Counted from the first letter of the stretch, positions 16,451 to 54,498 are shown. The stretch: 64,000 nt of DNA from an uncultured Clostridia bacterium (GCA_947628115.1 CANQYS010000002.1:3689-67688), one strand, 5' to 3'. The notes: a model not told the origin generated them from the letters alone. A program made the numbers and translations.

Positions 16451-16601
16451 AATTGTAGTTTGTATAATTGAATTTATTGCAAAAGTTGTAGGGGCAGATT
16501 CCATATCTGCACGAAATTGTCTGCTTTTCGGGCGGAAATTGATTCCCCCTACACAAAATTCTAAATTCCAAATGACAAACACAATTAAACAAACTATGAT
16601 T
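16451..16601. repeat. Composite MITE-like element (AATTGTAGTTTGT termini) carrying two GC-hairpin modules
   Basis: Starts AATTGTAGTTTGT and ends AAACAAACTATGATT. Internal ATTGCAAAAGTTGTAGGGGCAGAT..ATCTGC and CGGGCGGAAATTGATTCCCCCTACA modules. Fills the mutL-miaA intergenic gap. Confidence 0.65.
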
Positions 16602-16606
16602 TATAT

Positions 16607-18696
16607 CTATTTTCTATTAAATTTACGTTCGATCTCATATTTGCTCATCTTTATAGCGGTTGGTCTTCCATGTGGGCATGTAAATGGATTTTGTAGCACT
16701 AATAATTGTCTCATTAAATTATCTACTTCTTCTTTATTTAAATTCATATTAGCTTTTACAGCTGCCTTGCATGCAATTGTACTTATAAACTTATCTTCTT
16801 TTTCCTGAATAGCAGTTATAGCAACTGTATTTATTTCATCTAAAAGTTCCAAAAATAGTTCCTTTGTATCTAATTCCATACACATAGATGGAACTCCAAT
16901 TAACCTTATAGTCTTTTCCCCAAATTCCTCAAATACGAAACCTGCTTTTTTAAAAATCTCTGTATTTTCTTTAACTATATCTTTTTCTTTATGTGACAAA
17001 TTAATAATGTCTGGTAATAACATTATTTGAGAATCTTTTTCTCCTTCACTATAAAAATTTTTTTTAACTTTTTCATACATAACTCTCTCGTGAGCAGCAT
17101 GTTGGTCTATTATATATATTTCATCTTTTATTTCTATAACAATATATGTAGAAAAAAGTGCTCCTATATATTTATAATTAGGAATAGATTTATAGTTTTC
17201 ACTTTGTTCAAACACAGAAATGTTTTCTGCTGTTTTTAAAGTAACATTAGGTGTTTTGTCAATATCTTCTTTCTCTATTTCTGGAAGTTTTCCAAATGTT
17301 TTTACGTACATCTCATCAAAACTATTTTTGTTATCTATTTCTACACCTTTATCCATACTTTTTTGTAAGTTTAATATTTTATTTATTTTATCAACTTGCT
17401 CTTCAGTTGGAATTTTATAATCTTCCTTTAATACATCCTCTTTTTCTTCTGTATTGCTCTTTTTATTAAATAGTTCTTGTATAGTATTTACTTCAGAATT
17501 TTCTATAAAATTATCAGTTTCTGTTTCATCTTTTTTCTTAAACATGTTAATAAAACTTGGCACTTTTATTGTTTGAGTTTTAAATTTTTCTTCATAGTTT
17601 TCTTTTACTATATCTGTACTACTCTTTTGTTCTTTATTATTTTCTATATTTAAAATTATATCTTCTTTTTTTTCTTCTATTTGCTTCTCAGAATCTTTTA
17701 TTAATTCTTCTTTTAATAAGCTTTCTTTAATAGCGTGATAGACTGCTTTAAAAACTTTTTGTTCTTCAGACCATCTTATTTCCAATTTTGTTGGATGAAC
17801 ATTTACATCTATTTTTTTAGGTTCTATTTCAACATCTAAAACAAGAAAACCATATTTACCTATTGTAAGTAATCCTTTAAATGCTTGTTCTACAGCCGAC
17901 GACAATGTTTTGTCTTTTATATATCTTTTATTTACAAAAAATTGTTGATAACTTCTATTACTACGCGCTATTTCAGGTTTTCCAACTACTCCTTCAATTT
18001 TTATATCTTCATATTGATAATTAACATCTATAACTGATTCTGCTACTTCTTTTCCGTATATACTATAAATTACATTTTTTAAATCCCCACTTCCTGTTGT
18101 TTGTATAATAGTTTTACTTCCATTTATTAATTTAATAGAAATATTTGGATTAGCTAGTGCAATTCTTGTAACTGCATCTTCTATATAACCAGCTTCTGTA
18201 AAGTCCTTTTTTAAAAATTTATATCTTACTGGTGTATTAAAAAACAAATTACTTACAGTTATAGTTGTTCCAATTTGTGAAGCAGTTTCTTCACATTCTA
18301 AAACCTTTCCACCTTCTACTAAGATTCTATTTCCCGTACTCTCATTTTCTATTCTGGACACCATTTCTACTCTTGCAATTGAGGCTATACTTGCTAACGC
18401 CTCTCCTCTAAAGCCCATGGATTTCACAGTTTCCAGATCGTCTGCTACTCTTATTTTACTGGTAGCATGTCTTTCAAATGCAAATTCCATATCATCTTTT
18501 GCTATTCCGACATCCGTTATCTATAATTCTTATTTTACTAATTCCACCATTTTGTATTTCTACTGTTATTTTATCTGCACCTGCGTCTATAGAATTTTCT
18601 ACTAGTTCTTTAACAACTGATGCCGGTCTTTCTATAACTTCTCCGAGCTGCAATTTTATTAATTGTTAGTTCATCTAATAATACAATTTTACCCAA
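16607..18696 (-). CDS. mutL: DNA mismatch repair protein MutL; contiguous only if the C of two CGGs (18645..18643, 18509..18507) is skipped
   Basis: TTG start 18696 with an AGGGGG RBS. The N-terminal ATPase motifs [26 protein letters not shown] and DNGC-GI appear only after the two shifts. Span is 3n+2. Confidence 0.9.
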
Positions 18697-18823
18697 TTTT
18701 ATTTCCCCCTTAAAATTAAATAAATTGTATCATAATTGTTATAGTTTTACAATATAAAATTATCTTTAAAAAATCCTTAATTTAAAAATGTTTTATTACA
18801 GTTCAATAATTAAATATTTATTT

Positions 18824-19219
18824 TTAGTTTGATTTTGTATGATGAATTTTTCCATTTAATTCAGTTCCTTTTAAATAGTATACTTCTAAATTATTATTTA
18901 CCAAATAAATATCGTCTTTATCTCCATCTATCTTACTACCATAGTTTAAAGTAATATTTTCTAACTTACTTAAATCTATCTCATAATAATCATTGTATTT
19001 TTGTTCTAAAGTAGGTATTTCTCTATATTTATTGTAATATACCAATAGTTTATCTTCTAACAGTGTAATATCTGCAATCATGTTATTGTATGGGGCTACA
19101 TTGTTTGAAACATCTATACCATTAATAATAACAGCTGATAATATAAGTAATATTATAACTGTTATTATTACAGATACCATCGTTATACCTTTATTTGAAT
19201 TTAAATTTACTATTATCAT
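18824..19219 (-). CDS. Small pilin-like protein
   Basis: MIIVNLNSNKG-ITMVSVIITVIILLILSAVII: short leader plus a hydrophobic helix of the same type as pilA. Confidence 0.5.
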   Translation of the reverse strand: MIIVNLNSNKGITMVSVIITVIILLILSAVIINGIDVSNNVAPYNNMIADITLLEDKLLVYYNKYREIPTLEQKYNDYYEIDLSKLENITLNYGSKIDGDKDDIYLVNNNLEVYYLKGTELNGKIHHTKSN

Positions 19220-19266
19220 TTGTTCTCTCCTATTTAAATACTACTTTTATTTTTACATTTTATTTT

Positions 19267-52893: not shown

Positions 52894-53907
52894 ATGCAAA
52901 AAATTGGTAGTCAAACTATTAAATTTGATAACCCCGTAACAATATTAGAAACAGCTTCTATTGTTGGTCCAAAAGAAGCAGAAGGTCCTATGGCTAAATA
53001 TTTTGATAAATGTTTAGAAGATGAATTTTGGGGAGAAAAAACATGGGAAAAAGCTGAGAGTAAAATAATTAAAGAAACTGTAAATTCAAGTATAATTAAA
53101 TCTAAGGTATCTGCAGATAAAATAGATTATTGTTTTGCTGGAGATTTGCTAAATCAATGTATATCTTCTAGCTTTGGTCTGCGAGAACTTAATGTTCCCT
53201 TTTTCGGAATATTCGGAGCTTGTTCAACTTTTGTAGAAGCATTAAGTTTAGCAGCTGTTTTTATTGATGGAGGTGGAGCCGAAAATATTATTGGTGCAGC
53301 ATCTAGTCACTTCTGTAGTGCCGAAAAGCAATTTAGATTTCCTTTGGAACTTGGTAATCAAAGACCTCCATCTTCTCAGTGGACTGTTACAGGCGCAGGC
53401 TCTGCAATAGTTTCCAAAAATGGACAAGGTCCTTATATAACAAATATTACTACAGGAAAAATAGTAGATATGGGAATTAAAGATGCAAATAATATGGGCG
53501 CAGCTATGGCTCCAGCTTTTGTGGACACCCTTTTAACTCATTTCAAAGATACAGGAAGAAACCCAAGCTATTATGATGGAATATTTTCAGGAGATTTAGG
53601 ATATATAGGAAAAGAAATATCAACAGAATTATGCCAAACAAAAGGATATAATATAAAAAATAACTACAATGATTGTGGTGTTATGATGTTCGATAAAGAA
53701 AATCAAGATACTCATTCTGGTGGCTCAGGCTGTGCTTGTTGTGCAAGTATTTTTTCCGGATATTTATTTAATCAATTAAAACAAAAAAAACTAAATAAAA
53801 TACTTCTTGTTGCAACAGGTGCTTTAACAAATGCAACCTCTAGTCAGCAAGGAGAGTCTATTCCTGGTATTGCACATGCAATATCTATAGAAAATCAATT
53901 TAATTAA
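52894..53907 (+). CDS. spoVAD: Stage V sporulation protein AD
   Basis: Thiolase-like SpoVAD sequence (…GDLLNQ…FGACST…SHFCSAEKQFR.P.E.G.QR). Confidence 0.9.
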   Translation: MQKIGSQTIKFDNPVTILETASIVGPKEAEGPMAKYFDKCLEDEFWGEKTWEKAESKIIKETVNSSIIKSKVSADKIDYCFAGDLLNQCISSSFGLRELNVPFFGIFGACSTFVEALSLAAVFIDGGGAENIIGAASSHFCSAEKQFRFPLELGNQRPPSSQWTVTGAGSAIVSKNGQGPYITNITTGKIVDMGIKDANNMGAAMAPAFVDTLLTHFKDTGRNPSYYDGIFSGDLGYIGKEISTELCQTKGYNIKNNYNDCGVMMFDKENQDTHSGGSGCACCASIFSGYLFNQLKQKKLNKILLVATGALTNATSSQQGESIPGIAHAISIENQFN

Positions 53908-53910
53908 ATA

Positions 53911-54017
53911 AATTGTAGTTTGTGTAAGGGGAATTCTAGGGACTGTCCCTAAAAATCACCAATTTTGGGGATTTTTGGGACTGTCCTGAATTCACCTGAA
54001 ACTCACAAACTAAAATT
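53911..54017. repeat. MITE-like palindromic element, full-length type
   Basis: Starts 4 nt after the spoVAD stop. AATTGTAGTTTGTG...GGGACTGTCCC...AAAATCACCAATTTTGGGGATTTT...GGGACTGTCC...CACAAACTAAAATT. Confidence 0.7.
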
Positions 54018-54036
54018 TATAGAAAGGATTTATATT

Positions 54037-54428
54037 ATGCAAGATTTTTTTAATAATTTAGATTGGATGCTATTTCTAAAAGCTTTTGTTGTTGGTGGAT
54101 TAATCTGTATTATTGGGCAAGTTTTAATTGATAAAACTAAACTTACACCGGCTAGAATACTTGTTATTTTTGTAACTACTGGTGCAATACTTCGGAGGTC
54201 TTCGGAATTTATCAGTATGTAGTTGATTTTGCAGGTGCAGGTGCAACAGTTCCTTTAACAGGTTTTGGAAATCTTCTTGCAAAAGGTGCAATTCAAAAAG
54301 CTCAAGAAACCGGTTTAGTTGGTGCATTTACTGGTGGTACAGCAGCAGCTGCTGGTGGAATTGCATCAGCAGTTTTCTTTGGATATATAGCATCTCTTGT
54401 TTCAAAACCAAAAATGAAAAAGCAATAA
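54037..54428 (+). CDS. spoVAE: Stage V sporulation protein AE; contiguous only if the C of two CGGs (54193..54195, 54203..54205) is skipped
   Basis: [35 protein letters not shown]...[35 protein letters not shown]. Span is 3n+2. Confidence 0.8.
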
Positions 54429-54498
54429 ATTGTTGTTTGTGTGAGGGGAATTCTAGGAATTGCAAAAGAATTCTCCGAACATGAAACAAACTATTATT
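54428..54498. repeat. MITE-like element, short degenerate type
   Basis: AATTGTTGTTTGTGTGAGGGGAATTCTAGGAATTGCAAAAGAATTCTCCGAACATGAAACAAACTATTATT, overlapping the spoVAE stop codon. Confidence 0.55.

Follow-up and report, generated by a model that had tools for sequence, protein, structure and literature searches.

A family of MITE-like palindromic elements at gene ends in uncultured gut Clostridia

Two families of short bacterial repeats come closest to the elements described here. RUP of Streptococcus pneumoniae is a 107-bp intergenic element with terminal inverted repeats and a TA insertion site, which is present at about 100 highly similar copies per genome, forms a long hairpin and contains no open reading frame (ORF) (PMC2229807). 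The Correia (NEMIS) elements of Neisseria come in forms of about 107 and about 155 bp, an internal segment accounting for the difference; they have terminal inverted repeats and TA at their termini, their hairpins are co-transcribed with neighbouring genes, and no cognate transposase has been reported for them (PMC2229807). Here, we report six palindromic elements in 64 kb of contiguous DNA from an uncultured Clostridia bacterium (the window), together with their relatives in other genomes. We find that the elements are most probably copies of a non-autonomous DNA transposon family (MITE), one that is undescribed so far and, as an element, of an ordinary kind. What is unusual about this family is the reuse of its sites and the swapping of its interiors.

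Compared by description only, the family resembles RUP in its size of about 107 bp, its terminal inverted repeats, its TA, its intergenic position, its hairpin and its lack of an ORF. Also by description, it is set apart from RUP. RUP termini match those of the resident IS630-Spn1, whereas no cognate IS was found for the family in the DNA sampled; RUP tends to target IS elements, whereas the family lies at stop codons of housekeeping operons; and here several unrelated interiors are found under one pair of termini. The likeness to Correia elements extends to terminal inverted repeats, a long hairpin, terminal TA and a form of about 107 bp, and the DNA sampled here likewise revealed no cognate transposase. 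Correia elements have an IHF site and serve as substrates of RNase III; their hosts belong to another phylum, the genomes here having about 25% G+C. Their termini, which are presumably unrelated in sequence to those of the family, are also longer. They measure 24 bp (PMC2229807). Of the four systems named in the earlier note on this DNA, Correia and RUP are apt comparisons, whereas BOX and ERIC are looser ones.

Copies, termini and flanks

All six copies described in the earlier note exist and their coordinates hold to within 1 nt; one additional trace, a relic, was absent from it (Table 1). As noted, every window copy is intergenic and near a stop codon, and each folds into a single long hairpin; this holds for both strands, with z-scores from -3.3 to -10.5. 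Of the six, only copy 2, copy 5 and the right-hand portion of copy 4 contain the proposed common core in full. Copies 3 and 6 lack its centre, and copy 1 has a different interior.

Table 1. Elements and relic in the 64-kb window
Feature	Position	Length (bp)	Strand	Form
Copy 1	16451-16601	151		Family termini around a different interior
Copy 2	20919-21027	109	A-arm first on + strand	Canonical
Copy 3	37323-37392	70		Short form; termini perfect, central part of core deleted
Copy 4	52452-52855	404		Composite between spoVAC and spoVAD
Copy 5	53911-54017	107		Canonical, between spoVAD and spoVAE
Copy 6	54428-54498	71		Short form, 3' of spoVAE
Relic	29510-29522			Solo terminus AATTGTAATTTAT

Copy 1 lies between the start of miaA (16415) and the stop of minus-strand mutL (16607-16609), 5 nt from the latter. 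Its right terminus is degenerate (AATCATAGTTTGT in reverse), and its interior consists of two inverted hairpin units, each combining GTAG with a GC-rich palindrome (16488-16512 and 16530-16552). Copy 2 is flanked by TA at 20917-20918 and 21028-21029, and its last T together with the flanking TA (21027-21029) forms the stop codon of a minus-strand ORF (21027-21413). Copy 3 is 4 nt from the stop of an mfd-like ORF (37397), with the start of a SpoU-methylase gene 19 nt downstream; its right flank is CG, not TA. In the composite copy 4, the left terminus is followed by an arm with homology to copy 1's right end and by a GTAG-type hairpin that ends at 52531. Next come a nested long hairpin of 171 nt (52532-52702) and another hairpin of GTAG type (52705-52745); the canonical core occupies 52774-52835, ahead of the right terminus. 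Copy 5 begins 3 nt after the spoVAD stop (53905-53907), has TA flanks at 53909-53910 and 54018-54019, and is followed by the spoVAE start at 54037. The spoVAE stop codon TAA (54426-54428) consists of TA at 54426-54427 and the first A of copy 6. The relic lies between two minus-strand genes, encoding an HI0933-like oxidoreductase and methionine gamma-lyase, and is orthologous to a full 109-bp copy in a related genome (L080:2493-2601). Family members lie within mutL-miaA and spoVAC-D-E, and also next to rplT. ORF callers push start codons into the elements, as in the predicted ORF at 36541-37383.

The terminal inverted repeat is 13-15 bp long and reads AATTG(T/G)(A/T)(A/G)TTTGT. With at most 2 mismatches, AATTGTAGTTTGT matches the window 24 times compared with 7.7 expected, a number reached in 0 of 100 shuffles, and the 12 ends of the six copies fall among these matches; GAATTCTAGGGACTGTCC, with at most 3 mismatches, has 7 matches compared with 0 expected. 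Both the termini and the GGGGAATTCTAGGGACTGTCC core are much commoner than expected by chance. Stacking the 138 ends of 69 complete copies bore out the proposed conservation of the termini, positions 1-5 and 9-13 being at least 93% conserved. TA flanks the element on the left in 52 of the 69 copies and on the right in 52 (75% each), and on both sides in 40; at the genome-wide TA frequency of 11.4%, TA on both sides would be expected in about 1.3% of cases. The flank logo reads T-7 T-6 A-5 N A-3 T-2 A-1, with its mirror image on the other side. The ATA/TAT flanks of the earlier note are therefore better described as TA on each side plus a preference for an AT-rich palindromic flank.

Metagenome contigs carrying other copies support the same boundaries: their similarity ends exactly outside TA+terminus...terminus+TA and, for copy 5, ceases at 53906-53909 on the left and at 54019 on the right. 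We infer that TA is a true target duplication, with the qualification that the empty sites compared come from diverged genomes (77-87% identical in AT-rich spacers), so a duplicated TA is not strictly separable from a TA within the terminus. For two cases in the window, the 'original' codon, read with the base past the distal TA, would be TAT, which is no stop. At one site, 10-12 extra nt adjoin the element in the occupied genomes and are missing from the empty genome, so the true boundaries may be a few nt outside those given here. An alternative parse, in which a GT...AC element duplicates 4 bp (AATT) and the relic is an excision footprint, was rejected and the TA parse retained, because the empty sites L089 and L082 lack AATT.

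Spread, placement and states of orthologous sites

The family is not confined to this region. Members occur in more than 102 stretches, over 100 of them additional to those described above, and these represent about 17 genomes at species level, all from uncultured gut Clostridia and with Clostridium sp. CAG:452 among them. Most complete copies (49 of 69) measure 107-109 bp; a minor class measures 70-71 bp, and the longest composites reach 404-606 bp. The copies have no coding capacity, with no ORF of at least 80 amino acids inside. In metagenome data, word depth over the core was 819, 781 and 169, compared with about 5-15 in the adjacent spoVAD. Copies of 109 bp are identical at three loci (L004, L058 and L091), and near-identical copies occupy different loci of one genome. 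Copy-to-copy distance is 0.03 within a genome (two genomes) compared with 0.16 between genomes; the apical loop is genome-specific, for example AAACCT in 20 of 20 CAG:452 copies, and mosaic combinations of arms are seen among copies. The family is one pair of termini around several unrelated interiors, not one sequence. The whole window had no match in Rfam 15 at the gathering score, and at an E-value threshold the region 52300-53000 gave weak, chance miRNA-like matches (E at least 0.12). BLAST of a canonical copy against plasmid and phage collections matched nothing.

All placeable copies are intergenic and none is inside an ORF: 45 lie in co-directional, 7 in divergent and 3 in convergent gaps, and 6 lie at locus edges, where they could not be placed. 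In 22 of the 45 co-directional gaps, the position of the element relative to the upstream stop codon is -10 to +1 nt; this stop is formed by TA and the element's A in 10, lies inside the terminus in 5 and is 0-1 nt away in 7.

Comparison of orthologous intergenic regions, as the earlier note suggested, revealed presence/absence differences between related genomes. Filled sites are paired with empty or relic sites in three comparisons (L033 and L089, L003 and L082, L054 and L060). At the site of copy 6, L003 has a full-length element of 107 bp, and L082 and the strains of run X5 have none; copy 5 is missing from one strain of run X6; and at the site of copy 4, related strains have either a simple canonical element or one of about 70 nt. 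Relics occur at L104 and L106-L109 as well as in the window. Among metagenome contigs aligned on 16200-21300, copies 1 and 2 showed no clean polymorphism. The spoVAD-spoVAE site occurs in five states: the canonical form (window), a 172-nt composite (L003), a 177-nt GTAG type (L082), a 132-nt GAGAGGTG type (L105) and a relic (L106-L109). Three orthologous pairs have the copy in flipped orientation (L083/L091, L081/L028 and L039/L076).

Mobilization and rival explanations

The statement that the window holds no transposase with matching ends stands, because its one transposase-like gene, which is ISLre2-like (11396-12907), has no family termini in its surroundings. This gene was rejected as the mobilizer on that ground, and the duplication length is also unlike: the ISLre2 family generates 9-bp duplications. 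No autonomous element with family termini was found in the window or in about 1.3 Mb of related genome and metagenome DNA, which samples each genome. Pairing termini up to 4 kb apart and inspecting unpaired termini revealed none, nor did a generic search for inverted repeats spaced 0.8-2.6 kb apart, whose sole real IS-like match was an unrelated Rpn/YhgA-like ORF (L155). Six-frame translations of the sampled loci, again part of each genome, contained no IS630-type motif PYSPxLNPxE and no rve-type motif DNGxEF. A scan of a viral collection for TAAATTGTAATTTGT gave single chance matches and no paired termini around a gene. Since these ~1.3 Mb yielded neither an autonomous element nor a matching transposase, the mobilizer is characterized indirectly: an IS630/Tc1-like transposase is our favoured candidate, ahead of an IS30-like one, at somewhat less than even confidence, with other families sharing the remainder.

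The same MITE might instead be moved by an IS30-family transposase, by copy-out and paste-in. IS30 makes 2-bp duplications, inserts at near-palindromic hot spots and targets its own inverted repeats (PMC9333248). Such an enzyme would explain repeated use of a site and termini adjoining termini, and it fits the palindromic flank logo, the reoccupation of orthologous sites by other interiors and orientations, and the tandem left termini of one subfamily (L006:7540, L082:2558 and L070). However, the flanks are nearly always TA, a hallmark of IS630/Tc1, and neither junctions of right and left ends nor, in the translated loci, the DNGxEF motif was found. IS30 of E. coli, whose targeting habits recall the flank logo and the site reuse seen in the family, is moreover an autonomous 1.2-kb IS. 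Neither a gene of the IS30 family nor an IR-IR junction was found in the DNA sampled, and TA flanks are commoner with IS630/Tc1. We regard IS30-type mobilization as unlikely. Far less probable still is a REP/REPIN-like system, in which single-strand hairpins are moved by a tyrosine (Y1, RAYT-type) transposase in place of a DDE enzyme. REPs have been described mostly in Proteobacteria. These genomes contain many units of GTAG and GC-rich palindromes, whether solitary, paired in inverted orientation or arrayed, and the units nested in copies 1 and 4 are organized like REPs; a DDE transposase with matching ends was, as described, not found. The canonical copies, however, carry no GTAG hairpin, their long terminal inverted repeats and their TA flanks are features absent from REPs, and no Y1 transposase or RAYT gene was seen among the window ORFs. 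GTAG units also lie outside the termini (window positions 938, 1249, 3196 and 30094) and therefore represent a separate family that nests in the MITE family.

A host function could also keep the elements in place, with the conserved core serving, at operon junctions, as an mRNA-stabilizing or processing hairpin, a partial terminator or a protein-binding site and mobility being ancient or irrelevant. An alignment of 57 copies, drawn from many species, shows the core (GGGGAATTCTAGGGACTGTCC ... GGGACTGTCCTGAATTC) to be invariant or almost so; the hairpins have high stability, and the copies are sited systematically at stop codons within operons. Orthologous pairs differ at 28 of 453 core positions compared with 51 of 315 in the outer parts, and their flanks, at about 9% (the complement of mean flank identity), differ more than the core. 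This conservation could reflect selection on the core beyond mobility alone. Covariation says nothing either way, because paired columns hardly vary. On the other hand, orientation relative to transcription is unbiased (24:18), copies at the same site are lost, shortened or replaced by unrelated interiors, and genome-specific sequences fit amplification or copying, not site-by-site conservation. Canonical copies contain no terminator-like or enriched promoter-like sites, and independent GGGACNGTCC sites are absent. The idea that GGGACWGTCCC is a protein-binding site in its own right found no independent support, 134 of its 146 occurrences lying within 120 nt of a terminus and the others being mostly terminus-less fragments of the same element. 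Only two RNA runs contained about 5% of the words, and their contigs came from other organisms. We consider maintenance by host use improbable. The MITE reading, by comparison, survives every test run: the termini are conserved, the copies are dispersed, and the TA flanks and the filled and empty sites agree with non-autonomous mobility.

Proposed mechanism and implications

As copies of a MITE family, the elements would be mobilized by a transposase acting in trans that binds the terminal inverted repeat. Integration would take place at TA within an AT-rich, roughly palindromic target (approximately TTANA-TA-TNTAA), with duplication of the TA. With A as its first base and T as its last, an element landing in a stop codon's TA would restore TAA for a gene on either side; gene-end insertions would therefore be tolerated and accumulate there. 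Transcription of the operon would then include the inserted element, whose RNA would form a very stable hairpin. Several routes of turnover may follow. Loss of the hairpin by deletion between the terminus's own AAATT/AATTT direct repeats would leave a 10-nt relic, and internal deletion would produce the 70-nt forms. Other small palindromes (GTAG-type hairpins and the 171-nt hairpin) probably nest inside, and re-insertion at the same site or copying between copies would yield interior swaps, flips and homogenization within a genome. These routes, like any effect on mRNA, are inferred.

A more speculative proposal, which we consider possible but doubtful, is that the termini form a fixed 'shell' at gene-end sites, with an exchangeable interior that is refilled by copying other family members. 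Where the hairpin breaks, or where a transposase acts on resident termini, repair would use any other member as its template, and since both termini are the same sequence inverted, a donor could be copied in either orientation. If correct, this would account for identical junctions with differing interiors, as in the five states of spoVAD-spoVAE, and for flips, arm mosaics and genome-specific homogenized variants; it would amount to concerted evolution of dispersed repeats independent of ongoing transposition.

Assemblies of these widespread, uncultured and very AT-rich gut Clostridia break at the elements, and contigs end within copies; recognizing the family also avoids mis-annotation of ORF starts. 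At operon junctions, the elements serve to tell strains and species apart. The strong hairpins that they introduce into housekeeping and sporulation operons may affect the stability of the mRNA or the expression of genes downstream, and the family offers a compact natural system for the loss, replacement and homogenization of dispersed palindromic repeats.

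Six copies and a wider family

Read directly, all six stretches that the earlier note had described as one palindromic family match that description: each begins with AATTG(T/G)(A/T)(A/G)TTT(G/A)T, a terminus also written TAAATTGWWRTTTGT, and carries the inverse of it at the other end. At up to two mismatches, this pattern occurs 24 times in the window against 7.7 expected, and the 18-nt core, at up to three mismatches, seven times against an expectation of 0. All six fold into the long hairpin proposed for them, whichever strand is taken (z between -3.3 and -10.5). The source is an uncultured spore-forming Clostridia genome found in rabbit gut metagenomes, with a G+C content of about 25% in the window, and the genes beside the copies have ordinary housekeeping or sporulation roles.

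The family extends well beyond this region, as expected of the small non-coding mobile elements (MITEs) that had been proposed. A scan for GAATTCTAGGGACWGTCC, with one genome per species, gave more than 102 stretches among the matches listed; their sources are about 17 genomes of uncultured Clostridia from the guts of humans, rabbits and other hosts, Clostridium sp. CAG:452 among them. The listed loci and the window together hold 122 places resembling a canonical copy (107-109 bp with a GGGAC-type core); both termini are present in 69, of which 49 measure 107-109 bp and six belong to the 70-71-bp short form. Where metagenomes contain the window, the assembler's word depth at the core reaches 819, 781 and 169 compared with roughly 5-15 in the adjacent spoVAD, indicating tens to more than 100 copy equivalents in each community. 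Only closer relatives have the family: among 80 orthologous metagenome spoVA loci, its termini occur only in those with about 90% SpoVAD identity, and at the more distant loci the spacer is either short and empty or occupied by another palindromic insert. Several of these distant inserts carry GGGAC-type motifs, such as GGGACAGATACCCC repeats and GGGGACGGTTC, and one (L183) starts with TA-AATTGAACGTTAGGGAC, a likeness that hints at a wider superfamily.

Stacking 138 ends gave AATTG-(T>G)-(A>T)-(A>G)-TTTGT-(G/T)-T, and positions 1-5 and 9-13 hardly vary, so the terminus holds in a larger alignment. The outer dinucleotide is TA at 52/69 left ends, 52/69 right ends and on both sides of 40/69 copies (TA background, 11.4%). 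A further flank preference, T-7 T-6 A-5 N A-3, is mirrored on both sides, and the site thus resembles TTANA-TA-TNTAA. Contigs of other copies resemble copy 5 from a left limit at 53906-53909 to a right limit at 54019, which shows that the repeated unit is bounded by the flanking TAs. Inside a canonical copy lies an imperfect palindrome whose two arms can be told apart, A (GTGAGGGGGAATTC-TA-GGGACTGTCCC...AAAATCACC) and B (...GGTGAATTC-A-GGACAGTCCC-AAAATCCCC); its central 65 nt are almost invariant between species, and its apical loop varies by genome. The string GGGACNGTCC is scarcely found outside the elements.

Repeats and other features of the window and of related loci (L, loci of related genomes or metagenomes; bare coordinates refer to the window)
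Feature	Coordinates	Context
Copy 1	16451-16601	mutL/miaA
Copy 2	20919-21027	
Copy 3	37323-37392	mfd-like/SpoU methylase
Copy 4 (composite, 404 bp)	52452-52855	copies 4-6: spoVAC, spoVAD, spoVAE, rplT
Copy 5	53911-54017	
Copy 6	54428-54498	
Relic	29510	filled in L080
Relic	L104	filled in L030
Relic	L106-L109	filled in L105
Other palindromic inserts, distant relatives	L137:2400-3550; L147; L166; L178; L183	same spoVA junctions
GTAG units	930-960; 1230-1270; 3196; 16488-16552; 30094; 52505-52531; 52705-52745	
GTAG units, relatives	L076:5208-5433; L063:1-270; L092:35-197; L049:8-176	
171-nt hairpin	52532-52702	nested in copy 4
Third palindromic repeat	1354-1418; 26520-26584; 32240-32304	all intergenic
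Perfect inverted repeat	36436-36513	3' of DUF4364 gene
79% relative of it	L046:1685-1761	
165-nt insert	54910-55076	between rplT and rpmI
Related inserts	L082:4326-4418; L091:4058-4203; L088:6543-6646	other sites
About 120-nt element	L106:1724-1845; L107-L109, ~3940-4060	missing at same site in L105
Relatives of it	L079:720-900; L020:2604-2705	
ISLre2-like gene	11396-12907, minus strand	between glycosyltransferase gene and divIVA
Split spoVAE	54037-54428	
Split mfd-like gene	37397-40796	
Split pilT-like T2SSE gene	43442-44546	
Repeated coding block	707-945; 2965-3203; 48221-48350; 61408-61537	
ORF with tandem repeats	59627-61570	repeats at 59634-60735

Sites, interiors and turnover

None of 61 canonical copies lies within an ORF; 45 occupy co-directional gaps, 7 divergent and 3 convergent ones, and 6 at locus edges are unplaceable. 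Many of the co-directional copies abut the upstream stop codon, which is formed by the flanking TA and the first A of the element in 10/45 (the type seen in window copies 2 and 6), lies within the terminus (positions 6-8, TAA/TAG) in 5/45 and is 0-1 nt off in 7/45. Orientation relative to transcription is unbiased (A-first 24, B-first 18), which counts against a strand-specific RNA function and fits tolerated insertion at gene ends, where the first base A and last base T of the element restore TAA on either side.

Filled and empty states of one site were found in L033 and L089, L003 and L082, and L054 and L060, and contigs of a related strain (metagenome run X6) link 53907 directly to 54021, without copy 5. 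The filled-empty comparisons, at 77-87% identity in AT-rich spacers, establish presence or absence and do not define a duplication to the base. In closer relatives, the 'absent' state is a relic, a solo 10-nt terminus in the form TA-AATTACAATT-TA or its complement. The terminus AAATTGTAATTT is nearly palindromic by itself, and the relic is exactly what a deletion between two direct repeats (AAATT...AAATT or AATTT...AATTT), one at each end, would leave. The simplest reading of this match is that relics would arise when the hairpin is bridged by slippage or by microhomology repair.

In the sampled loci, one pair of termini surrounds several unrelated interiors: the canonical GGGAC hairpin, a GAGAGGTG-rich hairpin (119-132 nt), two GTAG units, each GTAG with a GC-rich hairpin (162-177 nt), an AT-rich form (180 nt), and composites and mosaics of the other types. 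The site between spoVAD and spoVAE has the same outer junctions in five related genomes but a different interior in each: canonical in the window, a 172-nt composite in L003, the GTAG type in L082 (177 nt), the GAGAGGTG type in L105 (132 nt) and a relic in L106-L109. Whole elements are flipped relative to their flanks in 3/7 orthologous canonical pairs (L083/L091, L081/L028 and L039/L076); across the seven pairs, differences number 28/453 in the core and 51/315 in the outer parts, with flanks differing by about 9% (the complement of mean flank identity). Copy distance is 0.03 within a genome (CAG:452, CALYZR) and 0.16 between genomes, and three identical copies lie at different loci in CAG:452. 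These interior swaps, flips and homogenisation show recent amplification or copying in each lineage, overlying old common sites.

Two routes fit this turnover. One is repeated insertion at strongly preferred sites or beside resident termini, as IS30 inserts into preferred sites and next to resident termini (PMC9333248). The other is copying among family members, guided by their common termini; copying would flip copies too, because both termini are one sequence, inverted. As for the enzyme, our best guess from the TA flanks is an IS630/Tc1-like mobiliser, as proposed for RUP elements (PMC2229807), with an IS30-like enzyme as the rival. Six-frame translations of the sampled loci held neither the IS630/Tc1-type PYSPxLNPxE motif nor the rve-type DNGxEF motif, and pairs of termini with a gene between them were absent from the window and from the related loci sampled, about 1.3 Mb of genome and metagenome DNA; viral loci added none. 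The sole transposase-like gene of the window is ISLre2-like (PF06782, UPF0236; NF033529 E = 2e-53, under that model's cut-off) and single-copy in the sampled loci; it was rejected as the partner, its surroundings being free of MITE termini. One contig of the species in ENA terminates exactly at this gene.

Other repeats and split genes

A second repeat family has a REP layout of GTAG, GC-rich hairpin and tail (for example, CCCCTACAACGTTTGCAAT), which is striking for a Clostridia genome of 25% G+C. Its units occur singly, as inverted pairs or in arrays of 52-65-nt period, inside and outside MITE termini; GTAGGGG is found 7 times in the window (1.25 expected), and the window has no Y1/RAYT gene. 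The near-perfect 171-nt hairpin, with ends AATGGTTnATTTATATTTTAC and inverse, has no further copies in the sampled loci. Its metagenome contig depth is 3-5x that of its flanks, and an unrelated study of the gut (run X8) contains it as well; this hairpin is therefore probably one more small mobile palindrome.

The third palindromic repeat, AAAGCTAAAACATTATTTTTTGA...TCAAAAAATAATGTTTTAGCTTT, has copies of 90-97% identity, confined to the window within the sampled DNA. The perfect inverted repeat comprises 37+37 nt around a 4-nt loop (TTTTTCCTTTTCCGGACGGACTAATTTTAGACTTTTT and inverse). The rplT-rpmI insert is missing at orthologous sites of L003 and L082; with related inserts ending in ACAAATGAAAAGC ... 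GCTTTTCATTTGT, it is one more small insertion family. The element of about 120 nt reads AAGAAAAGTGGCATTGCCAC...GGAAAATCTTCGATTTTTCC.

Three genes look split: spoVAE has a stop after 61 aa and goes on in a different frame, a break that two independent ENA contigs share; the mfd-like gene falls into two ORFs about 200 nt apart; and the pilT-like gene is likewise in two ORFs. They are either real pseudogenes or errors made consistently in assembly. Several minus-strand ORFs without a Pfam match have the repeated coding block (130-240 nt, 74-88% identity) in common within their 5' parts, and in ORF 59627-61570 a unit of about 429 nt is repeated in tandem.

Known relatives and possible function

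The family resembles RUP and Correia elements: size, hairpin, termini and TA flanks are alike, as is the intergenic location. It is not assignable to an IS family, as the partner that would define it is missing. No Rfam family matches the elements, plasmid and phage records gave no match to a canonical copy, and the terminus strings AATTGTAATTTGT and AATTGTAGTTTGT do not occur in papers of the searched literature. In a simple scan, canonical copies had no terminator-like sites and no excess of promoter-like sites; covariation was neutral on the hairpin. From position alone, the elements would be transcribed together with their neighbours as a stable hairpin. They may thereby affect mRNA stability or processing, a hypothesis on the model of Correia elements, for which such effects are reported (PMC2229807). 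What gives the family added interest is its exchangeable interiors, flips and within-genome homogenisation at conserved junctions.
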